Assembly: GCA_002839745.1 (NCBI GenBank)
Contig: PGYQ01000002.1
Span: 21,515 to 85,514, forward strand
Source of the DNA: Candidatus Kuenenbacteria bacterium HGW-Kuenenbacteria-1
Lineage (GTDB): Bacteria > Patescibacteriota > Patescibacteriia > UBA2591 > PGYQ01
Reading direction: 5' to 3'
DNA: 64,000 nt
Position numbers and translations under genes: made by a program. This document shows positions 2,981 through 51,997 of this stretch, piece after piece. Below the pieces are notes generated by a model. It was given only the letters and a program-made list of their open reading frames with translations, had not been told where the DNA came from and did not search any database. Position 1 is the first letter of the stretch. Each line of letters begins with the position of its first letter.

Positions 2981-3519
2981 ATGAATAAATCAAATAAATT
3001 AAACTGGTATGTTTTAACTGGCGGACCTTCTTCTGGTAAAACCACTTTAATTAAAGAATTAAAAAAATTGGGCTATATTGTTTTTCTAGAAGCAGCCCGA
3101 GTTTTTATTGACAAAGAAATAGCCAAGGGTAAAATATTAAAAGAAATCAGAAACAATGAGACTGAATTTCAAAAAAAAATTTTAAAAATAAAAATAAAAA
3201 CAGAAAAAATAGCTCCAAAAAATAAAATAGTTTTTTTTGATAGAGCAATTCCCGATAGCATTGCTTATTATCAAACCTGTGGATTAAATCCAAAAGAAGT
3301 TTTAAAATTTTATAAAAAAAAATTTACAGAAAGATATTTTTTTTAGAACAACTTCCATTTGAAAATGATTATGCCCGAATTGAAGATAGCAAAACTATTA
3401 AAAAATTAAATAACCTTTTAAAAAAAAGTTATAAAGATTTAGGATATGAAATTATAAATATCCCTATAATGTCTATAGAAAAAAGAGTTCAAAAAATTTT
3501 AAGTGAGATAAAAAATTAA
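2981..3519 (+). CDS. P-loop NTPase (AAA_28/NadR-like ATPase-kinase family), interrupted by an apparent frameshift in a T8 run at 3337-3344
   Basis: N-terminal Walker A (GGPSSGKTT). The ORF stops at 3346. The +2 frame continues (QLPFENDYARIEDSKTIKKL...SEIKN*) to 3519. Confidence 0.5.
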
Positions 3520-3524
3520 AATTT

Positions 3525-4541
3525 ATGCAAACTTATACTAAAGCAGGAGTAAATAGAAAATTAAGAGAAAAAGCAAAAAAATCTCTTAATGATTTTGAAG
3601 AAACTTTTAATTTAAGCAACCATGGCAAAATAATAAAAACTCCTTTTAATGTTCTTTATCCGATTAATAAAAATCTTTATCAAGTAAAAACCTGTGATGG
3701 CGTTGGAACAAAAGTTCTTTTGGCTGAATTGGCTCAAAAACACGATACTATTGGAATTGATGCTGTGGCAATGGTAGTTAATGATTGTATTCGTTGTGGT
3801 GCAAAACCAATTGCTATCACTGATATTATTGATATTAAAAAATCAGAACCAAAATTATTAAAGGAAATTGAAAAAGGATTAATTCAAGGGATAAAAGAAG
3901 CAGATTGCCCTTTAGTAGGAGGTGAAACAGCTGATGTGCCTGAACTTTTAAACACAACTTATCATATTAATTGCGATTGCGTTGGAGAAATAAAAAAGAA
4001 AAATATAATTACTGGCGAAAAAATAAAAGAAAACGACGTGATTATTGGCTTCCCTAGTTCAGGAATTCATTCTAATGGTTTAACTTTAGTTAGAAAAGTT
4101 CTTTTTAAAAAATGGGGCGGAAAATTTAATTTTTTTGAAAAGCCAGCTGAATTAAATAAATCATTAATTTATGAATGTTTAGAGCCAACAAAAATTTATG
4201 TTAAATTATTTTTTAAAATTGCCAAAAAATTTGAAATTTTAGGCGCGGTTCATATTACTGGCGATGCTTATTTAAAATTTAAAAAGTTAAATCTTGGTTT
4301 TGAATTTTTTAATTTTAAACCTCAACCAATTTTTAATTTAATTCAAAAAACAGGAAAAATTAATAATAAGGAAATGTTTCAAACTTTTAATATGGGTTGG
4401 GGATTTGCTATTATTGTTAAAGAAAAAGATGCGAACAATATTTTACATTTATACCAAAAAGAGAAAGTGGAAGTAATTGGCAAAGTAATTAATAAAAATA
4501 AAATTATTATTAATTATCAAAAAAAGATTTTTATTATTTAA
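3525..4541 (+). CDS. purM: phosphoribosylformylglycinamidine cyclo-ligase (AIR synthetase)
   Basis: PurM motifs including DGVGTK, in a purine gene cluster. Confidence 0.85.
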   Translation: MQTYTKAGVNRKLREKAKKSLNDFEETFNLSNHGKIIKTPFNVLYPINKNLYQVKTCDGVGTKVLLAELAQKHDTIGIDAVAMVVNDCIRCGAKPIAITDIIDIKKSEPKLLKEIEKGLIQGIKEADCPLVGGETADVPELLNTTYHINCDCVGEIKKKNIITGEKIKENDVIIGFPSSGIHSNGLTLVRKVLFKKWGGKFNFFEKPAELNKSLIYECLEPTKIYVKLFFKIAKKFEILGAVHITGDAYLKFKKLNLGFEFFNFKPQPIFNLIQKTGKINNKEMFQTFNMGWGFAIIVKEKDANNILHLYQKEKVEVIGKVINKNKIIINYQKKIFII

Positions 4542-4546
4542 AATAT

Positions 4547-5989
4547 ATGCCTGATTTAAATTTAATTATGCCGGGCAATCCTCGTTATCAACCTAAAGAA
4601 ATGGCGTCTGTTTTTGGGTATGATAATTTATATAAAAAAATTGCTGAAGTAGAATTAGCAACTTTGGATACACTTTATGATTTAGGAATTATTCCAAAAA
4701 CAGATTGGAAAAAATTAAATAAAAAAACAAGACAAGAAATTCTTTCAATTAGAACAACAGCTGTGGATAAAGTTGAACAAGAAATAACGCATCATGATAT
4801 CAGAGCATTTGTAAGATGCGCTCAGGAAATTTTAGATAAAAAAATCGCTCGCTGGGTGCACATTCCTTTAACAAGTTATGATGTAATTGATACTGCTAGA
4901 ATTTTACAATTTAAAGAAGCTTATCAAGTAGCTCTTAAGCCTGCTTTAATCAGCATCACACAAATTTTTATTAAATTAATTAAAAATAATTCTCAACAAA
5001 TTCAAATTGGAAGAACTCATGGTCAACATGCTTTACCAATCACTGTTGGTTTTTGGTTAGCAACTATTTTAAATCGCATTATTAATAATTGGGAAAAAAT
5101 GGATTATTTTTATAATAATTTATCTGGAAAAATTTCTGGAGCAGTTGGCGCGCATAACGGGCAAATTGGTTTAAAATTATCAAACTTAAAAAATAATGAA
5201 ACTTTTGAAGAAAAAGTACTTAAAAAATTAGATTTAAAACCAGCTCAAATTAGCACACAAATTTTACCACCCGAGCCTTTAGCATATTTTCTTTTTTCAA
5301 TAATAAATATGTCAGCAACTTTTGGACAATTTGGACGAGACTCAAGACAATTAATGAGAAGTGAAATAGCTGAAATAACAGAATCATTTGAAGCAGGTCA
5401 AGTTGGATCTTCAACAATGGCTCATAAAAGAAATCCAATTAATTTTGAAAATTTGGAAGGTATGTGGCTTCGAACAAAAAATGAATTTGGAAAAGTTTTA
5501 GATACTTTAATTAGCGAACATCAAAGAGATTTAGTTGGAAGTTCTGTAGCCAGAGATTATCCAATTATTCTTATAAATCTTCAACAACAATTAAATACTT
5601 TGCTTAAAAAAAATAAAAATAACGTGGCGTTTTTAGAAAGATTGTCTATAAATAAAAAAGCTTGCGAGATTAATTTTAAAAAAAATGCTAATATAATTTT
5701 AGCTGAACCAATGTATATTGCTTTACAAATGGCAGGCTATAAAGAAGACGCTCACGAATTAGTTAATAGAAAATTAGTTCCAATTTCTCAAGAAAAAAAT
5801 ATTTCTCTAATTGAAGCATTGGAAAAATTAATGATAAATGATAAAATATTAAAAAATGTTGTTAAAAATATTCCTATTGAAGTTTGGGAATTATTAAAAT
5901 CACCTGAAAAATATATTGGCGATGCCAAAGAAAAATCATTAGAAGTTGTAAAATATGCAAAAAGTTTTTTAGATAAAATAGAGAAATAA
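4547..5989 (+). CDS. purB: adenylosuccinate lyase
   Basis: Fumarate-lyase signature GSSTMAHKRNP; 480 aa. Confidence 0.85.
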   Translation: MPDLNLIMPGNPRYQPKEMASVFGYDNLYKKIAEVELATLDTLYDLGIIPKTDWKKLNKKTRQEILSIRTTAVDKVEQEITHHDIRAFVRCAQEILDKKIARWVHIPLTSYDVIDTARILQFKEAYQVALKPALISITQIFIKLIKNNSQQIQIGRTHGQHALPITVGFWLATILNRIINNWEKMDYFYNNLSGKISGAVGAHNGQIGLKLSNLKNNETFEEKVLKKLDLKPAQISTQILPPEPLAYFLFSIINMSATFGQFGRDSRQLMRSEIAEITESFEAGQVGSSTMAHKRNPINFENLEGMWLRTKNEFGKVLDTLISEHQRDLVGSSVARDYPIILINLQQQLNTLLKKNKNNVAFLERLSINKKACEINFKKNANIILAEPMYIALQMAGYKEDAHELVNRKLVPISQEKNISLIEALEKLMINDKILKNVVKNIPIEVWELLKSPEKYIGDAKEKSLEVVKYAKSFLDKIEK

Positions 5990-6035
5990 AAGAAATAAGA
6001 ATAAAAAAATAATTTATTTTTTAATTTAAAAAAAT

Positions 6036-7362
6036 ATGACTTACGAAAAAGGGCAAAAAATTATTGAAGGTAAAACTAAAATTATTTGGGAAATTAAAAA
6101 TGATTCTAAAAATGTGCTTATTGAAAACAAAAATGATATTACTGCTTTTGATGATCCATCTTTTACTAAACAATTTAAAACCAAAGCTGAAAATGCCACA
6201 ACAGTAACTTGCAAAATATTTGAATTATTAAAACAAGCAGGAATTCCTGTTGCCTACAATGAACAATGTTCTGCTAATGAATTTTCCTCACCAAAATGCG
6301 TAATGATTCCTTTGGAAGTTGTTGAAAGACGATTTGCTGTTGGAAGTTATTTAAAAAGACACCCAGAATTTATTAAAAATGATAATATTTTGCCACACAG
6401 ATTTCATAAATTGCTTATTGAATTTTTTCTAAAAACAACAAAAGGTGGTTTAATTAATTCTAAAGGAGAAAAAATATTAGAAGGATTAGATGCTTTAAAA
6501 GGAGAAGAAGATCCTTTTATTATTAATCCATTTGATGATGAATGGAAACTTTTTCATTCTAAAAAACCAAATTGGACAGAAGAAGCAGATTTTAAAAAAA
6601 TAATTAAAGCTAGTGATGCTTTTTCTGAATATTCTCAAGAAATTATAAAAAAAAATTGATGAGCTTTCAAGAAAAACTTTTTTAGTTTTAGAAGGTGCTT
6701 GGAATACTTTAGGTTTTAGATTGATTGATATGAAAATTGAATTTGGTTTAGATGTTGATGGAAATTTATTAGTATCTGATGTGATTGATAATGATAGTTG
6801 GAGACTTAGAGATGCTGATTGGAAAGAATTAAGCAAAGAAGCTTTTAGACAAGGCGAAACATTAGATGAAGTTGAAAAAAATTATAGTTATGTCGCAACT
6901 TTAACACAAAATTTTAGAATTCCTAAACAAGTTTTAGTTTTATGGCGCGGATCAGACAGTGATACTTTTCCAGAATTATCTATTTTAAAAAATATTGCTG
7001 GTTTAAATATTGAAGAAATAACTTTATCAGGACATAAATCTACACAAATGTGTCTTAATAAATTAAATGAAATTATTGGAAAATTTCCTGATGCAGGTGT
7101 AATTTTAGCTAAAGTTGGTAGAAGTAATGGGCTTGGTCCAATTATCGCATCACGAACTTCTTGGCCAGTAATTACTATTCCTGCAACATTAGAAACATTT
7201 CAAGAAGATATTTGGAGTAGTATTAGAATGCCATCAAATGTTCCTTTAGCTACTGTTTGGCCAGAATCAAACGGAATACTATTAGCATCAGAAATCTTAG
7301 CGCAAAAAAATCCAATAATTTATCAAAAAAGACAATTAACAATTGAAGAACAAGATGAATAA
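6036..7362 (+). CDS. purC-purE: bifunctional SAICAR synthetase (PurC) / AIR carboxylase (PurE) fusion, PAICS-like. Frame changes at the A9 run 6647-6655.
   Basis: 6036-6659 encodes the PurC N-terminal part. Frame +1 opens at 6649 (KKIDELSRKTFLVLEGAWNTLGFRLIDMKIEFG) and continues as the PurC C-terminus. It is followed in the same ORF by a PurE domain (VLVLWRGSDSD ... ILAKVGRSNGLGPIIASRTSWPVITIP). Confidence 0.7.
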
Positions 7363-7394
7363 AAATTTATATTTAAAAGATAAAATTTAAAATA

Positions 7395-9329
7395 ATGAAA
7401 AATATATTTGAACAACTTATAGATTTATTAAAAAAAGACGAGCGACTTGTTTCGCAAGACGGTATTCTTTTGAAAAATCAAACACAGGAATTGGCGCGCA
7501 AGAATGATCCGACGCTCTTAAAACTTTTGCTTTCCGATAAAACGATAAAACAACACTTCTTTTTTGAAATAGAAAAAACGCTGATTTTTGATAAAGAAAA
7601 ATTTATCCGTTTTGTTTCCAACAAACAATTTTTGCCGGATTCTTATACCGCTTTCAAAAACAAAATCGGTTTAACTGCTAACGATGAATATGTGAGTGAA
7701 AACAAAGAAGTGGTTTTGGCGTGGCCTTATAAAGATTGTGTTTTGGAAGGCGGAATGACTAAAGAAGACCAAAAGCGCGACGAGATTTTTTATAACGAAA
7801 CACTTGCGCCGGACGACATTAATCGCTTATTGGATGCCAAAGTTTTTACCAATTTCAAACGAATAGATAAAAAAGGCGAACACAAACTGAACGGCTTCAA
7901 TCGCGATGAAAAAGGCACAATTAAAGACAATTTAATTATCAAAGGCAATAACCTGCTCGCCCTTGCCTCGCTCAAAAAAGAATTCGCCGGAAAAGTGAAA
8001 CTTATTTACATTGATCCGCCATACAATACCGGCAATGATGGATTTAAATACAATGATTCATTCAATCATTCCTCGTGGCTTGTTTTTATAAAGAATAGAT
8101 TAGAGATAGCAAAAATATTGTTATCTAATGATGGTGTTATTTTTATACATTGCGATAATAACGAGCAGGCATACCTAAAAGTAATGATGGATGAAATTTT
8201 TGATAGGGATAATTTTATTGACATAATAACGGTTGTTAATAATCCAAGGGGACGAGATTATGGTGGCATTGCTAAAATGCACGAATTTATAAATGTATAT
8301 GCAAAATCATCTGATTATAAATTATATAGATTAGAAGAGCCAAATAAAGAATTTCCTTTTGCTGATAATATTAGCGGTTTTGAAATAAGGGAATTAAGAA
8401 ATAGAAATGTTAAATTTAACGATACAAATCGTCCAAACCTAGTTTATCCATTTTTTGTTAATTCTAAAAAAGAAGATAAAAATGGGTTTTTTGATATTGG
8501 TTTAGAACAAAAGACTGGGTGGGTAAAGGTTATGCCGGCTAAATCACAAGGTATTCAAACTGTTTGGCGGTGGGGCAGAGAAAAGTCAGCAAAAGAATTA
8601 AATATAAATATTTGTGGTAAACAAATGCAAAATGGTGGTTGGCAAATTGTTGAAAAATATCGCGAAAAAACAACAATGGCGAGGTCTGTTTGGTGGGATA
8701 AAAATGTAAATTCTGAAAGAGGAACGCTACATCTCAAAGAAATGTTTGGGAGTAAGTTATTTGATTATCCAAAACCAGAGGAAACACTACACAGAATTAT
8801 TGAGATGGCGACAAGACAGAATGATCTTGTTTTAGATTTTTTTGCTGGCTCGGGTACGACTTTAGCGGTGGCACACAAAACCGGACGACAATATATTGGT
8901 ATTGAGCAAATGGATTATATCCACGATTTGCCGGAAACGCGGCTCAAGAAAGTGATTGCCGGCGAGCAGGGTGGAATTTCCGAAGCCATCGGCTGGAAAG
9001 GCGGCGGGGATTTTGGCTATATGGAACTTGCTAAATGGAACGAAAAATGGATAGAAAAAATTGAAAAAGCAAAAACAGGCGAAGAGCTTTCCAAACTTTG
9101 GGGTGAGATGAAAGAAACCGCCTTTTTGAGCTACAAGGTAGATCCGAAAACGATTGACGCAAACGCCAAAGATTTTGCGGATTTGAGTGCCGCTGATCAA
9201 AAGAAGTTTTTAATTGAGTGCTTAGATAAAAACCAGCTCTATATCAATTTAAGCGAAATTGAGGATAAAGAGTACGAAGTGAGCAAGGAAGATAAAGCAC
9301 TCAATAAAAACTTCTATAACGGCAAATAA
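7395..9329 (+). CDS. mod: Type III restriction-modification DNA methyltransferase (Mod), beta-class N6-adenine methylase
   Basis: DPPY motif IV (IYIDPPYNTGNDG) precedes a central variable region, followed by motif I (DFFAGSGTT). Sits directly upstream of res. Confidence 0.8.
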   Translation: MKNIFEQLIDLLKKDERLVSQDGILLKNQTQELARKNDPTLLKLLLSDKTIKQHFFFEIEKTLIFDKEKFIRFVSNKQFLPDSYTAFKNKIGLTANDEYVSENKEVVLAWPYKDCVLEGGMTKEDQKRDEIFYNETLAPDDINRLLDAKVFTNFKRIDKKGEHKLNGFNRDEKGTIKDNLIIKGNNLLALASLKKEFAGKVKLIYIDPPYNTGNDGFKYNDSFNHSSWLVFIKNRLEIAKILLSNDGVIFIHCDNNEQAYLKVMMDEIFDRDNFIDIITVVNNPRGRDYGGIAKMHEFINVYAKSSDYKLYRLEEPNKEFPFADNISGFEIRELRNRNVKFNDTNRPNLVYPFFVNSKKEDKNGFFDIGLEQKTGWVKVMPAKSQGIQTVWRWGREKSAKELNINICGKQMQNGGWQIVEKYREKTTMARSVWWDKNVNSERGTLHLKEMFGSKLFDYPKPEETLHRIIEMATRQNDLVLDFFAGSGTTLAVAHKTGRQYIGIEQMDYIHDLPETRLKKVIAGEQGGISEAIGWKGGGDFGYMELAKWNEKWIEKIEKAKTGEELSKLWGEMKETAFLSYKVDPKTIDANAKDFADLSAADQKKFLIECLDKNQLYINLSEIEDKEYEVSKEDKALNKNFYNGK

Positions 9330-9331
9330 TT

Positions 9332-12001
9332 ATGTTATACGACGAATTTAACTCATATAAAAACTTTGCCGGCGCTGATGTTTTCAAAAACAAAGCGACT
9401 GAAAAAACGGATATTTTGAAAAATCTCAATCCGGCTTTTCCAGCGCGCGAATATCAAAAAGAAGCGTTGGGGCGATTTTATTATTATTGCGAAGAATATC
9501 ATCAAAAACTCAAACCAATTCACTTGATGTTTAATATGGCGACCGGCTCGGGCAAGACGCTCATAATGGCCGCTAATCTTTTGTATTTTTATCAAAAAGG
9601 TTATCGCAATTTTATTTTCTTTACTCGTCTTGGCAATATTATTCAAAAAACTAAAGCCAATTTTCTTGATCCAAATTCAAAAAAATATCTGTTTGCCGAC
9701 AAAATTATGCTAGGCGGACAGGAAATAAAAATCAAAGAATATAATAATTTTGAAGGAGTAAATGATGACGATATAAACATTATTTTTTCTACAACCGCTC
9801 TTTTGCATTCTCGCTTTAATTTCGCTCGCGAAAATGTTTTAACTTATGAAGATTTTACAGATAAAAAAATTGTTTTGATTGCGGATGAAGCGCACAACCT
9901 ATCTGCGGAAACAAATAATAAAATAAGTAAAACCGAAGAAGAAGACCGTCGAAACTGGGAGAATACAGTAGTGCGGATTTTGAACGCCAACAGCCAAAAA
10001 GAAAATGTCCTTTTGGAATTTACAGCAACGGCTCGTTTAGAACAGGAATATCCGGAAATTTTAGAAAAATATAAAGATAAAGCGATTTATCGTTATGATC
10101 TGAAAGAATATCGCTTGGACGGATTTTCAAAAGATGTACGAACTTTGCAAATCAACGCGCCAACTATTGAACGCGCTCTCTCGGCAGTGATAATTTCTCA
10201 ATATCGCCGAAAAGTAGCAGAAAAGTATAAAATCGCTTTGAAACCAGTGGTAATGTTTAAAGCAAATAGAGTCAGTATTCCAAAAGAAGGAATATCAAAA
10301 GAACACAATCCACAGATTGTCGTTTCAAACATTTTTAAAGAATCTTTTCATAAACTTATTTCTAAACTCGGCGAAAAACACCTAACACAACAAACAGCAA
10401 TTAAAGATGCGACATTACAAAAAGCATTTCAATTTTTCAATGAGCAAAAAATTTCTTTGGCAGATTTAGTGGCAGAAATTAAAAGCGATTTTGCGCCGGA
10501 AAAATGTTTGACAGTTGATGAATATAAAGATTTAGAGCAAAAACAAATTTTACTTAATTCGTTGGAAGATCAAAACAATGAAATCCGCGCTATTTTCGCA
10601 ACAGAAAAATTGAATGAGGGCTGGGATGTTTTAAATCTTTTTGATATTGTCAGGCTCTATAATAGCCGTGACGTCAAAAACAATAAACCGGGTAAAACAA
10701 CTGTGCAAGAGGCGCAACTTATCGGGCGAGGTGCAAGATATTATCCATTCACACTCGGCGACTTTACAGACGCATACAGGCGAAAATTTGATACCGACAC
10801 ACAAAACGAACTTCGGATTTTGGAACAGCTTTATTATCACAGCGTAACGAATCCCCGTTATATTCAAGAATTGGAAAGTGTTCTGGTTCGTGAAGGTATT
10901 ATGCCGTCACGCACAGTGCAAAAAGAGATTAAGATCAAAAGTGATTTTAAAAACAGCGATTTTTGGAATAAAGGTTTTATTTTCTTAAATGCTCGCAAAG
11001 AAAATTTAGGCAAGAATGTTTTCGCACTCTCGGACGCTAAAGCAGAATTTGACCACAACGCTGAAATAAACATCTTTCAACTATCAACGCGAGAAGCGAT
11101 AGAAAAAGATTTATTTGTTGCGGGTGCTGGCGCCGGAGTAAATGCAAAAATAGAAATTCTGGATTATAAAATCGCTGATTTGGGAACACATATTGTCCGC
11201 ACCGCTTTGGCGAAAATACCAGCCGGACGATTTGATAAATTAAAAAAAATATTTGGCAATATAGAATCCATAAAAGATTTTATTTTAAATGAAAAATATC
11301 TTGGAGGAATAAAAATTAAAGTGAGAGGTAAGAGCGAGCAAGTAGAAGATCTTTTGCAGATTGAAAAATTAAGTATTGCCGGATTTGTGATAGATAAAGT
11401 GTTAGAAATCGCCGGCAAAGAAAAAAAGGAATACTACGGAACAAAGGAATTTAAAGCTCATTTGATCCAAAAAATATTTGAAAATGACAAGGTATTGCAA
11501 TTGGATAGCGAAAGTTCACGAGCGCAAAATATGCGAGATTTTGATTTTTCTTCTCGGGATTGGTTTGCTCAAAACGAAATCTGGGGAACAAGCGAGGAAG
11601 AATCATTTTTGCGTTTTATTGATGAGTCAATAACAAAGTTAAAGAAAAAATATCAAGACATTGCATTACTTCGCAATGAACAATTTTTCAAAATTTATAA
11701 TTTTGATAATGGAGAGCCATTTTATCCAGATTTCGTTTTGTTTTTAACTGAAAAGGAAACAAAACAAGAAATTATATATCAAATTTTTGTTGAGCCAAAA
11801 GGAGATCATCTTGTATTATATGACGAATGGAAACAGGAATTTTTACTTAAGATAGAAAAAAATTACACTATTGATTTAAAACTAGAAAATAAAAATTTTC
11901 GCTTGATCGGATTGCCATTTTTTAATGAGGGTCAAGTAAATAGTGCTTTGCGTGAAAAATTTGAAGAAGTTTTTAAAAAACAATTTTTAGATATAAGCTA
12001 A
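9332..12001 (+). CDS. res: Type III restriction enzyme Res subunit (SF2 helicase-nuclease)
   Basis: Helicase motif I (MATGSGKT), motif II (IADEAHNL), 889 aa, start 3 nt after the mod stop. Confidence 0.8.
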   Translation: MLYDEFNSYKNFAGADVFKNKATEKTDILKNLNPAFPAREYQKEALGRFYYYCEEYHQKLKPIHLMFNMATGSGKTLIMAANLLYFYQKGYRNFIFFTRLGNIIQKTKANFLDPNSKKYLFADKIMLGGQEIKIKEYNNFEGVNDDDINIIFSTTALLHSRFNFARENVLTYEDFTDKKIVLIADEAHNLSAETNNKISKTEEEDRRNWENTVVRILNANSQKENVLLEFTATARLEQEYPEILEKYKDKAIYRYDLKEYRLDGFSKDVRTLQINAPTIERALSAVIISQYRRKVAEKYKIALKPVVMFKANRVSIPKEGISKEHNPQIVVSNIFKESFHKLISKLGEKHLTQQTAIKDATLQKAFQFFNEQKISLADLVAEIKSDFAPEKCLTVDEYKDLEQKQILLNSLEDQNNEIRAIFATEKLNEGWDVLNLFDIVRLYNSRDVKNNKPGKTTVQEAQLIGRGARYYPFTLGDFTDAYRRKFDTDTQNELRILEQLYYHSVTNPRYIQELESVLVREGIMPSRTVQKEIKIKSDFKNSDFWNKGFIFLNARKENLGKNVFALSDAKAEFDHNAEINIFQLSTREAIEKDLFVAGAGAGVNAKIEILDYKIADLGTHIVRTALAKIPAGRFDKLKKIFGNIESIKDFILNEKYLGGIKIKVRGKSEQVEDLLQIEKLSIAGFVIDKVLEIAGKEKKEYYGTKEFKAHLIQKIFENDKVLQLDSESSRAQNMRDFDFSSRDWFAQNEIWGTSEEESFLRFIDESITKLKKKYQDIALLRNEQFFKIYNFDNGEPFYPDFVLFLTEKETKQEIIYQIFVEPKGDHLVLYDEWKQEFLLKIEKNYTIDLKLENKNFRLIGLPFFNEGQVNSALREKFEEVFKKQFLDIS

Positions 12002-12125
12002 TTTTTTGTGTAATACATTATCGCTATACTATAAACCTAAAAAATAATATTTTATTTTACTAATTTTATATTTTCATTATAGATTTGTTGCCGAATGCCA
12101 TATTTATTCAATATTTTATAAAACT

Positions 12126-15100
12126 ATGTATCAATTTTACAGTTTAGTTGATGATAAACAAGAAAATTGTTATTACATTGACACAAATTCATCTTTGAAT
12201 AAAAAAGAAATTAAAATTTTGACCAAAATTTTGGCTAATGGTTTTATTGAAAAAAATATTAGTTTAGTTTCAAAATTAAATGATGAAAAAGTAATTGAAA
12301 TTGGACCTAGACTTAATTTTGCTACTGCTTTTTCTAGTAATGCTGTATCAGTTTGTCATAATTGCGGATTAAAAATAATTATACGAATTGAAAAAGCAAA
12401 AAGATATGATTTAAATAAAAATGATGATAGAAATAATTTCATTAAAACAAATCATGATAAAATGACTGAAATTGTTTATGAAAAAAAGTTAGAAAATTTT
12501 AAAACAAATTTAATTCCAAAACCAGTCTATGAAGTAAAAATTTTAGAACAAGGAATTGATGCTTTGAAAAAAATAAATAAAGAAATGGGCTTGGGAATGG
12601 ATGATTGGGACGAACAATTTTATTTCAATCTTTTTATTAATGACATAAAAAGAAATCCTACCAATGTTGAATGTTTTCAATTAGGTCAAGCTAATAGTGA
12701 ACATTCTAGACATTGGTTTTTTAAAGGCAGAATGATAATAGATGGAAAAGAAAAAGAAGAAACTTTGTTAGAAATAGTTCAATCAACTTTAAAAGCTAAT
12801 ATTGCAAATAGTTTAATTGCTTTTACTGATAATTCAAGCGCTATAAAAGGTTATGCTATTGAAACAATTATTCCAAAAACACCTGGAAAAGTTTCGTATT
12901 TTATAAAAACAAAGAAAAAATATAATTTTATTTTTACAGCTGAAACACATAATTTTCCAACAGGAATTGCTCCTTTTTCTGGTGCTGAAACAGGATCAGG
13001 AGGACGAATTAGAGATGTTCAAGCAACAGGAAAAGGATCTTTAGTTGTGGCAGGAACTGCTGGTTATGCAATTGGTAATCTTAATATTCCTAAATATAAT
13101 TTAGTTAATGAAAATAAAAATTTTAAATATCCAGATAATTTAGCAAGTGCTTTAAAAATTCAAATAGATGCTTCAAATGGAGTTTCTGATTATGGAAATA
13201 AATTTGGTGAACCATTAATTCAAGGATTTAATCGTTCTTTTGGTCAAATACTTCCTGATAAAACACGACAAGAATGGATAAAACCAATATTATTTTCTGG
13301 CGGTGTTGGACAAATTGATAATATTCATATTAAAAAATATAAAGTAGAAATTAAAATGTGTATAATTCAAATCGGCGGTCCAGCTTATCGTATTGGAATG
13401 GGTGGTGGAGCAGCTTCAAGTATGATTCAAGGTGAAAATAAAACAGAATTAGATTTTAATGCTGTTCAACGTGGTGATGCTGAAATTGAACAAAAAATAA
13501 ATCGAGTTATTCGCGCTTGTGTAGAAATGGGAAATAATAATCCAATTATTAGTATTCATGATCAAGGAGCTGGAGGACCTTGTAATGTTTTAACAGAATT
13601 AGTAGAACCAATCGGTGGCAAAATAGAAATTAGAAAAATTAATTTAGGTGATAAAACAATGTCAGTTTTAGAAATTTGGGGATGTGAATATCAAGAAAGA
13701 CAAGCTTTATTAATTAAACCAAATAAATTAAAATTATTTTTAAATATTTGTAAAAGAGAACATAGTGATTGTGAAATATTAGGAACAATTACTGGCGATG
13801 GAAAAATTATTGTTTATGATAATGAAAATAAATCAACACCAGTTAATTTAGAACTTTCTAAAATTCTTGGCAAAATGCCTAAAAAAATATTTAAAGACAC
13901 AAGTTTAAAAATGAAATTAACTCCATTAATATTTCCAAATAATTTATCTTTTGAAAAAGCTTTAGAAAATGTTTTACATTTGCCATCAGTTTGTTCAAAA
14001 AGATTTTTAACAACAAAAGTAGATCGCAGTGTAACAGGTTTAATTGCTCGTCAACAATGTGTTGGTCCTTTGCAACTTCCATTATCTGATGTTGCAGTAA
14101 TCGCACAAAGTCATTTTAATAAAACTGGCGCAGCTATTTCAATTGGGGAACAACCAATAAAAATTTTAGTTAACCCAGAAGCAGGCGCGCGGATGTCAGT
14201 TGGCGAAGCATTAACAAATATTGTTTGGGCAAAAATAAGTAAATTAGAAAATATTAAATGTTCTGGAAATTGGATGTGGCCAGCAAAATTACCAGGTGAA
14301 GCTTCAAGAATTTATCAATCAGCTTCAGCAATGCGTGATTTAATGATTAAATTAGGAATTGCAATTGATGGAGGAAAAGATAGTTTATCAATGGCAACAA
14401 AAATGAAAAATGAAATTATTAAATCACCAGAAGAATTAGTTATTTCAGCATATTCTTCAATGCCAGATATTAATAAAGTAATTACGCCAGATATTAAATA
14501 TGCTGGAGAAAGTGAGCTTTGGATTATTGATTTAGGAAAATCAAAATGTCGTTTAGGAGGATCAGCTTTAGCTCAAACTGTTAAACAAATTGGAAATCAA
14601 TCGCCAGATGTTGATGATGCAGAAATATTAAAACAATCTTTTTTAGCAATACAAGAATTAATTGAAAAAGATTTAATTATTTCAGGACACGATCGTTCAG
14701 ACGGCGGTTTAATAACAACATTACTTGAAATGGCTTTTGCTGGAAATTGTGGTTTAAAAATTAAAACAGAAAATAATGCTGATAAATTTGCTTATTATTT
14801 TAATGAAGAATTAGGTTATATAATTGAAGTAAAAAATAATCTAAAAAAAGAATTTTTAAAAATTATAAATAAATATAACTTAAATAATTTAACAGAATCT
14901 ATTGCAAAAACTATTATTGAAAAAGAAATTATTATTAACCATAATAATGAATTAATTTTAAAAAATTCAATGCAAAAATTAAGAGATATTTGGGAAGAAA
15001 CAAGTCATCAAATTAATTTACTTCAAACTGATCCAAAATGCGCTCAAGAAGAAAAAAATAATATTTTTAATCAACAAGTATTAGAATATAAAATTTCTTT

Positions 15101-15938
15101 TAAACCACAATTAACAACACAAAAAATATTAAACAGTATTAATAAACCTAAAATTGCAATTATTCGCGAAGAAGGAAGCAATGGAGATCGTGAAATGGCT
15201 AGTGCATTTTATTCTGCTGGTTTTGAAGTTTGGGATGTTACAATGTCTGATTTGCACACAGAAAAAATTAAATTAGATAAATTTAGAGGAATTGCTTTTG
15301 TTGGTGGATTTTCTTACGCAGATGTTTTTGCTTCAGCAAAAGGCTGGGCAAGTAATATAAAATTTAATCCAAAAATAAGTGAAATGTTTTCTAATTTTTA
15401 TAATCGTCCAGATACTTTTTCTTTAGGAGTTTGTAATGGTTGTCAATTAATGACTTCAATTGGCTGGGTTCCATTTAAAAATATTAAAGTTGAAAATCAG
15501 CCAATGCTTATTAAAAATAAATCAAAACGATTTGAATCACGTTGGAGTAATATAAAAATAAAAAAAAGTCCTTCAATAATGTTGAAAGGAATGGAAAATT
15601 CAATTCTCGGTGTTTGGGTCGCACATGGCGAAGGATGTTTTAATTTTCCAGATAAATTAATTTATCAAGAAATTATAAATAAAAATTTAGCGCCAATATT
15701 TTTTGTTGACGATAAAGGCGAAGCAACAGAAAAATATCCATTCAATCCAAACGGTTCTATCAATGGCATTACTTCTCTTTGTTCTGAAAATGGTCGTCAT
15801 TTAGCAATGATGCCTCATCCAGAAAGAGCATTTTTAAAATCACAATGGCCATGGATGTCAGAGAAAATGAAAAAAGAATTAAAAGCTTCGCCTTGGTTAA
15901 AAATGTTTCAAAATGCATATGAGTGGTGTAAAAAATAA
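12126..15938 (+). CDS. purL: phosphoribosylformylglycinamidine synthase, large single-chain form with C-terminal glutamine amidotransferase domain
   Basis: 1270 aa. FGAM synthetase domains plus the C-terminal type I glutamine amidotransferase (GATase) motif (GVCNGCQLM). Confidence 0.85.
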   Translation: MYQFYSLVDDKQENCYYIDTNSSLNKKEIKILTKILANGFIEKNISLVSKLNDEKVIEIGPRLNFATAFSSNAVSVCHNCGLKIIIRIEKAKRYDLNKNDDRNNFIKTNHDKMTEIVYEKKLENFKTNLIPKPVYEVKILEQGIDALKKINKEMGLGMDDWDEQFYFNLFINDIKRNPTNVECFQLGQANSEHSRHWFFKGRMIIDGKEKEETLLEIVQSTLKANIANSLIAFTDNSSAIKGYAIETIIPKTPGKVSYFIKTKKKYNFIFTAETHNFPTGIAPFSGAETGSGGRIRDVQATGKGSLVVAGTAGYAIGNLNIPKYNLVNENKNFKYPDNLASALKIQIDASNGVSDYGNKFGEPLIQGFNRSFGQILPDKTRQEWIKPILFSGGVGQIDNIHIKKYKVEIKMCIIQIGGPAYRIGMGGGAASSMIQGENKTELDFNAVQRGDAEIEQKINRVIRACVEMGNNNPIISIHDQGAGGPCNVLTELVEPIGGKIEIRKINLGDKTMSVLEIWGCEYQERQALLIKPNKLKLFLNICKREHSDCEILGTITGDGKIIVYDNENKSTPVNLELSKILGKMPKKIFKDTSLKMKLTPLIFPNNLSFEKALENVLHLPSVCSKRFLTTKVDRSVTGLIARQQCVGPLQLPLSDVAVIAQSHFNKTGAAISIGEQPIKILVNPEAGARMSVGEALTNIVWAKISKLENIKCSGNWMWPAKLPGEASRIYQSASAMRDLMIKLGIAIDGGKDSLSMATKMKNEIIKSPEELVISAYSSMPDINKVITPDIKYAGESELWIIDLGKSKCRLGGSALAQTVKQIGNQSPDVDDAEILKQSFLAIQELIEKDLIISGHDRSDGGLITTLLEMAFAGNCGLKIKTENNADKFAYYFNEELGYIIEVKNNLKKEFLKIINKYNLNNLTESIAKTIIEKEIIINHNNELILKNSMQKLRDIWEETSHQINLLQTDPKCAQEEKNNIFNQQVLEYKISFKPQLTTQKILNSINKPKIAIIREEGSNGDREMASAFYSAGFEVWDVTMSDLHTEKIKLDKFRGIAFVGGFSYADVFASAKGWASNIKFNPKISEMFSNFYNRPDTFSLGVCNGCQLMTSIGWVPFKNIKVENQPMLIKNKSKRFESRWSNIKIKKSPSIMLKGMENSILGVWVAHGEGCFNFPDKLIYQEIINKNLAPIFFVDDKGEATEKYPFNPNGSINGITSLCSENGRHLAMMPHPERAFLKSQWPWMSEKMKKELKASPWLKMFQNAYEWCKK

Positions 15939-34095: not shown

Positions 34096-34271
34096 TATTA
34101 TGACAAAACAAAATAAACACGAAAACACGAAAACATAAGAAATTTTAAATTATAAATTTTGGAAGATTGTTTAAATGCAGAAATCGAACCTTGGGAAATC
34201 CCGTAGGCCGATTCTATGTAATCGCCCACAGGGCGAAAACGTGGTTTCGCCCCTACGAAACGCAAATTGTT

Positions 34272-35149
34272 ATGCAATACAATTCCGAAATCCATCATCG
34301 TCGATCAATTAGATTAAAAGAATATGATTATTCGCAAAATGGCGTATATTTCATCACAATTTGTACGCAAAATCATGAATGTTTGTTTGGAAAAATTGAA
34401 AATGAAAAAATGATTTTAAATGAATACGGCAAAATTGTAAAAAAAGATTGGTTGGAAATCCCAAATCATTTTCCAAATATAATATTAGACAAATTTATTG
34501 TAATGCCCAACCATATTCACGGAATAATAATTATTGACGCATCCGTAGGGGCGTACCCTTGCGGTCGCCCTGTAATTAGGGCAGGGGCAAGCCCCACGGT
34601 TGGGCTGTTCTAAAATAATGACATCATAAAGTTTACATTATTTGTACATTTTTCAATTGTTTCTTGTATTTTGTTTAAATTATTTTTTCTGAAAATATTA
34701 ATTACTAAATTTCTGATTAAAGAATAATTTGCAGAAGCATTTCCTCACGGTTAGGGAAATTAATTAAGCCCCCTTGATAAAGGGGGTTGGGGGATTTCAT
34801 AAGAAAGAAACCCTCTAAATCCCCCTTATCAGGGGACAAAGAGAGAAGCAAACCTCTTAAAAGCCCCCTTGATAAAGGGGGTTGGGGGATTTCAGAAATT
34901 AAGAAACCCTCTAAATCTCCCTTATCAGGGAGACTTTATGGAAGAAGGATTTTCAAAATTATAAATCATTAGTTGCAAATAGGTGTTTAAATATTTATAA
35001 ATCAAAAAATAAATATATGGGGAAATTATAGCAACGGAATTATTTTGAACATATTATTCGTGATGAAAAATCATTAAATAAAATTCACGAATATATTTTT
35101 AACAATTTTTTGAAATGGGAATTTGACAGAAATAATCCAAAAAATTTAT
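34272..35149 (+). pseudogene. REP-associated tyrosine transposase (RAYT, IS200/Y1 family) split by a MITE insertion. N part is about 34272-34592, C part about 35028-35149.
   Basis: N part has HHRRSIRLKEYDYSQNGVYFITICT and the HuH motif (HIHGII). C part reads QRNYFEHIIRDEKSLNKIHEYIFNN, the catalytic-Tyr motif. The two parts are separated by a repeat element that has a near-identical second copy at 58479-58781. Confidence 0.65.
34593..35027. mobile_element. MITE-like element copy A (one clean terminal inverted repeat (TIR), internal 86-bp tandem duplication, degenerate distal end) inserted in the RAYT gene
   Basis: TIR CCACGGTTGGGCTGTTCTA lies at 34593-34611. The body is near-identical to the reverse complement of 58479-58781. 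Internal GC hairpin modules are CCCCCTTGATAAAGGGGG and CCCCTTATCAGGGG. The hairpin unit is duplicated at about 34768-34853 and 34863-34945. Confidence 0.65.
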
Positions 35150-49556: not shown

Positions 49557-51373
<1,817 letters not shown>

Positions 51374-51921: not shown

Positions 51922-51997
51922 GGGCGCATAGCTCAGCTGGTAGAGCATTTCTCTGATAAGGAAAAGGTCCATGGTTCGAGTCCATGTGCGCCCACCA
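51922..51997 (+). tRNA. tRNA-Ile (anticodon GAT) in the spacer after 16S, CCA encoded
   Basis: GGGCGCA acceptor, D-arm TAGCTCAGCTGGTAGAGCA, anticodon loop CTGATAA, T-arm CATGG-TTCGAGT-CCATG. Confidence 0.8.

Follow-up and report, generated by a model that had tools for sequence, protein, structure and literature searches.

A Type III restriction-modification (RM) cassette, consisting of the methyltransferase gene mod and the restriction gene res (7395-12001), interrupts an array of purine-biosynthesis (pur) genes in the 64,000-nucleotide stretch of Kuenenbacteria DNA analysed here (the window), which comes from a metagenome-assembled genome of the Candidate Phyla Radiation (CPR), or Patescibacteria. 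We consider it very probable that this cassette is a mobile element, that its Mod protein is a mosaic, and that a trough of low GC (guanine plus cytosine) content within the target-recognition domain (TRD) of Mod was already in place when the cassette arrived. An earlier note on this DNA had read the same locus as a GC-rich operon that was acquired horizontally and whose TRD was then either exchanged or ameliorated rapidly. The acquisition is borne out by the comparisons described below, whereas the history that the note gave for the TRD is not.

The mod-res cassette and its base composition

The first gene of the cassette, mod (7395-9329, plus strand), encodes an intact 644-amino-acid (aa) protein that we assign to the Type III beta-class N6-adenine DNA methyltransferases. 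It matches the Pfam families TypeIII_RM_meth (5e-24) and N6_N4_Mtase (9.5e-45), both above their cut-offs, and in the PDB it matches Mbo45V Mod (6e-46), which is the closest solved Mod, Helicobacter Mod (4e-33), and EcoP15I Mod (9e-29). Motif IV (DPPY, aa 207, 8013-8024) and motif I (FAGSG, aa 483, 8841-8855) are ~270 aa apart, and the order DPPY, TRD, FxGxG is that of the beta class. The protein thus comprises an N-terminal scaffold that contains DPPY (aa 1-240, 7395-8114), the TRD as an exchangeable module (aa 241-480, 8115-8834), and a C-terminal scaffold that contains FAGSG (aa 481-644, 8835-9329); we refer to the two scaffold-coding parts of mod as its 5' and 3' arms. The second gene, res (9332-12001, plus strand), lies downstream of mod on the same strand, with 2 nt between the mod stop (9329) and the res start (9332). 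NCBI lists the identical Mod, and the identical PurL, under Candidatus Kuenenbacteria bacterium HGW-Kuenenbacteria-1. The res gene encodes an intact 889-aa Type III restriction subunit (Pfam ResIII, 1.8e-23; precomputed Pfam families HI_1054_N and HI_1054) with the superfamily 2 (SF2) helicase motifs GSGKT (aa 72, 9545-9559), DEAH (aa 185, 9884-9895), TAT (aa 231), and QxxGRxxR (motif VI, aa 462, 10715-10738). A putative nuclease motif, PD...EPK (11726-11800; PD at aa 799-800 and EPK at aa 821-823), is conserved with six aligned relatives as a sequence pattern only. With a beta-class Mod, an SF2-helicase Res, a C-terminal PD-(D/E)xK pattern, and a mod-then-res unit, the locus is, on the evidence of its sequence, an intact Type III RM cassette. 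The earlier note had identified the genes and their coordinates between purC-purE and purL correctly, as judged from open reading frames (ORFs) and Pfam matches, and the motif positions that it gave (~8080 for DPPY and ~8850 for FxGxG) are close to those found here.

The window as a whole is 27.8% GC. As a measure of host composition, we used GC at third codon positions (GC3), with the median of the 46 ORFs in the window (0.144) as the baseline. Compared to these ORFs, mod (35.3% GC, GC3 0.332) and res (33.6% GC, GC3 0.282) have robust z-scores of 7.5 and 5.5, respectively, whereas the pur genes are 26-30% GC with GC3 values of 0.10-0.14. The compositional contrast reported in the earlier note therefore stands, but the 38-42% GC that it ascribed to most of the operon is well above the averages for the two genes and is reached only locally, at 7650-8100, 8700-9300, and 10500-11250.

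The composition profile across the cassette is not flat but consists of an elevated mod-res with a trough. Within mod, GC3 is 0.33-0.41 in the N-terminal scaffold, 0.21 in the TRD, and 0.43-0.50 in the C-terminal scaffold, the GC-richest part of the gene; counted over the TRD as a whole, it is 48/230 or 0.209, compared to 0.401 in the rest of mod (Fisher p = 6e-7). The trough is deepest at aa 281-360 (8235-8474), where GC3 is 0.11 and ranges from 0.07 to 0.12 in frame. The lowest 80-codon window of mod departs from permuted expectation (p = 5e-5) and is indistinguishable from host GC3 (binomial p = 0.74). Thus, the host-like dip that had been described for the segment between DPPY and FxGxG is real at 8101-8550, which is 28-29% GC, but the remainder of the TRD (8475-8850) is only intermediate, with a GC3 of 0.2-0.3. 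The first and second codon positions have a similar GC content in the TRD and the arms, indicating that amino-acid content is not the cause of the dip. Two low-GC3 stretches that the earlier note did not mention lie in res, at aa 81-180 (9572-9871; GC3 0.19) and at the 3' end of the gene, aa 781-889 (11672-12001; GC3 0.17, host-like), compared to 0.31-0.42 in relatives for the two stretches and 0.36-0.41 for the 3' end. The identity of the latter to close relatives is only 67-79%, and 8 aa are missing just past EPK, with the catalytic residues kept.

Two other ORFs in the window, at 2423-2905 and 34167-34613, have GC3 values as high as those of mod-res (0.31 and 0.36, respectively) and no Pfam match. 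Homologues of the 2423-2905 ORF, 28-37% identical, adjoin the pur clusters of relatives; high GC3 alone is therefore no marker of foreign DNA here.

Horizontal entry into the purine array

The array is encoded on one strand in the order purM, purB, purC-purE fusion, mod, res, and a large purL (ORFs and Pfam). To the left of the cassette, the host purC-purE fusion (6036-7362, plus strand; Pfam SAICAR_synt and AIRC) has a host-like GC3 of 0.10, and its stop (7362) is 32 nt from the mod start. The left end of the cassette is a short leader (7375-7394, plus strand) that is conserved with relatives. To the right (12002-15938, plus strand), an AT-rich 124-nt spacer is followed by the host purL (12126-15938; GC3 0.10). 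Nucleotide homology to related cassettes (blastn) is confined between these flanks, starting at 7369-7395 and ending at ~11990.

We compared this locus with those of relatives found by PurL. In a scan of one genome per species, the relatives were Paceibacterota and Parcubacteria with PurL 64-70% identical, and six of these genomes (L002, L003, L007, L009, L011, and L057) have purB, purC-purE, and purL together without mod or res. Their purE-purL gap is ~200 nt in L002 and holds AAA_28, or AAA_28 plus one more gene, in the other five. In a large protein collection, the nearest PurL not from the source genome shares 77% identity and occurs on four contigs (L166-L169), also without mod-res, in the order DnaJ, purB, purCE, one minus-strand gene, AAA_28, purL, purM, TatD, and ATP synthase. 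Orthologous pur clusters that already contain the cassette, which the earlier note had named as an argument against acquisition, were thus not found among seven distinct relatives, and the clusters of these relatives differ from each other at the purCE-purL junction.

Related cassettes were instead found elsewhere. Scanning metagenomes with Mod yielded 80 loci, many with a Res that is 88-97% identical in amino acids and 84-90% identical in nucleotides. The four closest Mod alleles (80-90% identical) adjoin a helix-turn-helix gene, a saccharopine dehydrogenase, TraG/AbiEii, and a tRNA synthetase, and one carrier of a related cassette (L087, the same as P0058) is Candidatus Shapirobacteria. The flanks of related cassettes range from 29 to 52% GC, and mod-res itself stays constant at 33-37% GC. 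The cassette therefore stands out as GC-rich in the window only against the extreme AT-richness of this host; most other hosts have flanks richer in GC than the cassette. With empty pur clusters in relatives, near-identical cassettes elsewhere, and homology that stops at the gene ends, the conclusion from these comparisons that the cassette is foreign and entered this lineage horizontally is well supported.

Vertical descent would instead require that mod-res was ancestral at this locus and was lost in all sampled relatives, with its composition set by protein or nucleotide constraint. The cassette is co-oriented and tightly packed in the pur array without mobility genes or repeats, and AT-biased changes in res (see below) imply a non-trivial residence time, which speaks for this explanation. 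We nevertheless judge it very unlikely, as the seven relatives' clusters that lack the cassette are mutually different at the junction, and GC3, which is little constrained by protein function, exceeds the host value two- to threefold. Moreover, cassettes that are 84-90% identical in nucleotides are present in Shapirobacteria and in unrelated contexts, whereas PurL orthologues are only 64-77% identical in amino acids, and the relationships of cassettes and hosts are incongruent.

A chimeric join during assembly or binning could also have placed a foreign mod-res in the pur cluster, and the metagenome-assembled source and a homopolymer frameshift 0.7 kb upstream (6647-6655), which hints at an imperfect consensus, make this worth weighing. 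In the window, a +1 frameshift at this A9 run breaks purC-purE into two ORFs (6036-6659 and 6721-7362), whereas all relatives have one ORF of ~441 aa; the frameshift may reflect an assembly error in the homopolymer, true pseudogenisation, or slippage. We give very little credence to an artefactual join, however, as the exact Mod protein occurs on four contigs, including contigs of 64 kb and 107 kb from different sources that share its neighbours, the same arrangement is found on a JGI contig, both junctions fall in short AT-rich spacers between intact genes, and the AT-biased res changes fit real residence in an AT-rich genome.

Insertion of RM genes with deviant GC3 into operon-like structures has been described previously (Furuta, Abe and Kobayashi 2010, PMC2853133). 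Like those mobile units, the cassette in the window is a deviant-GC3 RM unit between conserved host genes that it does not disrupt, in a rearranged neighbourhood. Unlike them (PMC2853133), it has no detected long target duplication, flanking inverted repeats, or integrase.

The arrangement of signals around the array bears on expression of the cassette in its new position. A strong bidirectional terminator-like hairpin with a 16-bp stem (2903-2939) lies upstream of the array, and right behind it comes the region's best promoter-like site (TTGTCA-16-TATAAT, 2947-2974, 11/12), although promoter-like counts are near the shuffled expectation and the promoter scan says little. This site is likely to be the start of an AAA_28-pur-mod-res-purL array. 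A scan of the purE/mod and res/purL gaps showed no terminator-like hairpin at either, which, together with the upstream terminator and promoter-like site, makes read-through transcription of mod-res from the pur genes plausible; mod-res is probably co-transcribed with them.

Exchange of the TRD and origin of the trough

To describe variation within Mod, we aligned the 120 best homologues (MAFFT) and compared identities segment by segment. Approximately 25 of the 120 share the arms of the window's Mod (~90% identity over aa 1-250 and ~80% over aa 471-644) around unrelated centres (15-35% identity, several lengths), and in others the centre is similar (60-88%) but the arms are only 35-50% identical. 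Among 82 alleles, we distinguished 29 TRD classes, at least 12 of which occur on arms that are at least 85% identical to those of the window. At the nucleotide level, the best-matching locus switches at ~8025 and ~8850. For 7426-8025, the best matches are loci with other TRDs at 91-94% identity (e.g., L099, L095, L090, and L096); 8026-8850 is homologous in only 12 of 84 loci (L162 at 91%, L085 at 89%, and L163 at 85%); and for 8851-9300, loci with other TRDs are again best (L093, L087, L099, and L103 at 83-87%), compared to 71-80% for same-TRD alleles. Homology breakpoints against other alleles cluster at 8029-8220 and 8736-9018. Thus, the same arms carry many unrelated centres and the same centre sits on divergent arms, as in allelic mod genes, and by these alignments Mod is a mosaic whose TRD module is exchanged across the family. 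The comparison of mod alleles proposed in the earlier note accordingly reveals TRD swaps, and its suggestion of TRD exchange holds for the family as a whole, given the number of classes on similar arms and the switching best matches, but not for an event after arrival that the dip would record.

The origin of the dip can be addressed with the same alleles. Three observations favour a history in which the operon arrived GC-rich and its TRD was then swapped for a local AT-rich one, or ameliorated much faster than the rest in situ: the GC3 of 0.11 is indistinguishable from that of the host, the arm-TRD difference of 0.19 is in the upper 9% of relatives (only 9% reach at least 0.19), and Mod is demonstrably recombinant. 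We regard this history as unlikely, however, because the trough is found outside this host. The closest alleles, L162 and L163, have GC3 values of 0.17 and 0.09, respectively, over aa 281-360 in hosts whose flanks are 42-44% GC, indicating that the trough travels with the TRD. The deficit is also family-wide: in 78 of 81 relatives, irrespective of TRD class and host, the TRD has a lower GC3 than the arms (means 0.253 vs 0.351; Wilcoxon p = 2e-14).

The direction of substitution argues likewise. We polarised window-specific substitutions by majority-rule parsimony among alleles (same-TRD alleles for the TRD), a procedure that is crude at partly saturated third positions and supports direction rather than rates. 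In the TRD, there are 10 GC>AT and 13 AT>GC changes, and same-TRD alleles in GC-richer hosts have an excess of AT>GC changes (35 vs 4 GC>AT in L165 and 27 vs 7 in L164), suggesting that the ancestral TRD was AT-rich. These counts speak against rapid amelioration of the TRD, and, taken with the alleles of L162 and L163 and the family-wide dip, the sequence comparisons indicate that the trough originated outside this host and was inherited with the TRD allele.

The other parts of the cassette have changed differently. Window-specific changes in res are 101 GC>AT vs 33 AT>GC and are spread along the gene (p = 3e-9); a partial amelioration of res toward host composition is clearly detectable in this pattern. 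The mod 5' arm has a weak bias in the same direction (8 GC>AT vs 2 AT>GC), and the 3' arm has 2 GC>AT vs 11 AT>GC changes. The reversed bias of the 3' arm (~8850-9330), combined with its better match to other-TRD alleles, suggests a third, GC-richer ancestry for this segment. Uniform amelioration of the whole cassette was considered and rejected, as res is AT-biased, the 5' end of mod only weakly so, and its 3' end biased in the opposite direction; this unevenness fits recombination patches better than a single mutational clock.

The history that we consider very probable is as follows. The cassette family circulates widely, largely among Patescibacteria, keeping ~33-37% GC, and a member entered the Kuenenbacteria lineage at the variable purC-purE/purL junction, co-oriented with the pur genes. 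The conserved 5' and 3' arms of mod would serve as homologous-recombination arms between which the central TRD swaps en bloc. TRDs of this family are intrinsically AT-richer than the arms, and the present allele came with its trough in place. After arrival, res gained AT-directed substitutions, and the TRD did not.

Several observations weigh against this interpretation, in addition to the crudeness of the parsimony counts. No integrase or transposase was found among the neighbours, which are pur genes, and no target-site duplication was found; the best word shared by the flanks 7301-7400 and 11976-12130 is 9 nt, at chance level (p = 0.46), and there are no terminal repeats. The nearest relative of the host PurL outside the source genome is only 77% identical (at most 70% in the genome collection), which brackets the time of entry poorly and does not allow the insertion to be dated tightly. 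The neighbourhood itself has been rearranged, with AAA_28 and a divergent purM upstream of purB. A PDB sequence search with Res gave no match at E <= 1e-3. Finally, the mod scaffold (GC3 0.40) lacks net amelioration, unlike res, and parts of it, although not the TRD trough, may have recombined later in situ.

Precedents for a mod gene of this kind come from well-studied pathogens. In modA of Neisseria and Haemophilus, the recognition domain is exchanged en bloc between alleles and species, and the recognition domain of the modA12 allele has a lower GC content than its 5' and 3' regions (PMC3311624). The present family resembles the modA, modB, and modS families (Neisseria, Haemophilus, and Streptococcus suis) in its conserved arms and its hypervariable, en-bloc-exchanged centre of lower GC. 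It differs in that no phase-variable repeat tract is present here and in that its network spans uncultivated groundwater and sediment lineages with many host GC contents; in addition, a low-GC TRD characterises 78 of 81 relatives here and a single allele, modA12, there (PMC3311624). The allelic TRD architecture is that of phasevarion mod genes, and one could propose that mod acts as a phase-variable epigenetic regulator, like modA of Haemophilus and Neisseria, rather than in defence. This role is extremely improbable in our view, as mod and the region upstream of it lack a simple-sequence repeat tract (Tandem Repeats Finder detected only three repeats of two copies and, in the upstream spacer, AAAATTT x4.7 with 69% matches) and as res is full length with its catalytic motifs intact.

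Predicted activity, the mod-res junction, and neighbouring genes

In gene order (mod-res), a beta-class N6-methyladenine Mod, and a Res with an SF2 helicase and a C-terminal PD...ExK pattern, the cassette resembles the classical Type III systems EcoP15I, EcoP1I, and Mbo45V of Mycoplasma bovis; it differs from them in a TRD that is only 37% identical to that of Mbo45V, a Res without a PDB match, and a CPR host. Type III enzymes act on asymmetric sites of 5-6 bp, methylate a single strand, and need ATP and two inversely oriented sites for cleavage 25-27 bp away. By analogy with EcoP15I and Mbo45V, the TRD of a Mod2Res complex would select a short asymmetric site in which one adenine, on one strand, is methylated, and the complex would use ATP to cut unmethylated DNA carrying two inversely oriented sites, about 25-28 bp from the site. 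Mbo45V recognises YAATC (bioRxiv 10.64898/2026.05.01.722158). Transfer of this specificity to the present Mod was considered and rejected, as TRDs with 37% identity do not allow the recognition site to be predicted. Alleles in other hosts have the same predicted specificity module, and one methylome would therefore give the motif for the whole TRD class.

The short gap between mod and res in the window contrasts with the situation in most relatives. In 63 related loci that hold both genes (within L082-L165), the mod-res junction is filled in 56, with 0.46-3.8 kb comprising one to three co-oriented ORFs. The 82 cargo ORFs form at least 47 families, including OLD-like AAA_15+TOPRIM, AAA_13 (RloC/PrrC-type), Abi_C, PHP+SMC_N, Schlafen/AlbA_2, GIY-YIG/DUF4357, AAA_14/DUF4143, an SMODS+AGS_C cyclase paired with a 182-aa ORF, and a D12 Dam methylase that also resembles DndB weakly, below threshold; examples lie at L102:3019-4848, L113:4442-6314, L084:10390-12657, and L121:11937-14600. 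The slot is empty in the window (9329/9332) and in L103, L105, L110, L131, L148, L154, and L122. A narrow literature search did not find a cargo slot described in Type III systems.

Type I hsd loci carry embedded abortive-infection genes, namely PrrC in EcoprrI and RloC. The mod-[cargo]-res loci of the relatives are similar in that AAA_13, OLD-like, Abi_C, and SMODS genes stand between two RM genes, and dissimilar in that the carrier is a Type III system and the window's own slot is empty. As a tentative possibility, the junction could be a dedicated slot for defence genes and the TRDs a separate, AT-rich exchangeable pool, with the window representing a rare empty-slot form. Were such cargo coupled to the Type III system, as PrrC is to EcoprrI, and fired as backup effectors upon inhibition of Mod or Res, the result would be a general Type III carrier architecture for which no systematic description exists.

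The biology of the cassette itself, comprising a Type III RM system, TRD shuffling, and a low-GC recognition domain, is already known, and the finding is real but ordinary. The new elements are the occurrence of this pattern in CPR bacteria and a low-GC TRD rule that spans a whole family. The locus also provides a clean example of an RM cassette that crosses CPR lineages and lands in a biosynthetic array. In addition, it calls for caution in reading gene history from composition, as a 'GC-rich island' and a 'host-like dip' can both mislead: here the former is such only by comparison with an extreme host, and the latter belongs to a travelling TRD module rather than to local amelioration.

The surrounding array (3525-15938) encodes the de novo purine enzymes purM, purB, purC-purE, and large purL with host-like GC3 in a CPR genome; a preprint describes CPR bacteria generally as not able to make nucleotides (bioRxiv 10.64898/2026.07.13.738296). 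Beyond Patescibacteria-labelled genomes, PurL relatives are mostly from Nitrospirota, at 55-62% identity. Gene order has been rearranged (window 2981-4541 compared to L166:5798-11204): relatives have AAA_28-purL-purM, whereas in the window AAA_28 and purM are upstream of purB. The window's AAA_28 is 121 aa long, compared to 183 aa in relatives, and is apparently truncated. Its purM is ~35% identical to that of relatives, compared to 75-77% for purB, purCE, and purL, which suggests that purM has been displaced or is xenologous.

Insertions in rRNA genes are known in CPR. The 16S rRNA gene of the window (49558-51373) is 1816 nt long compared to a 1533-position model, implying ~280 nt of insertions, and a tRNA follows at 51922-51994.

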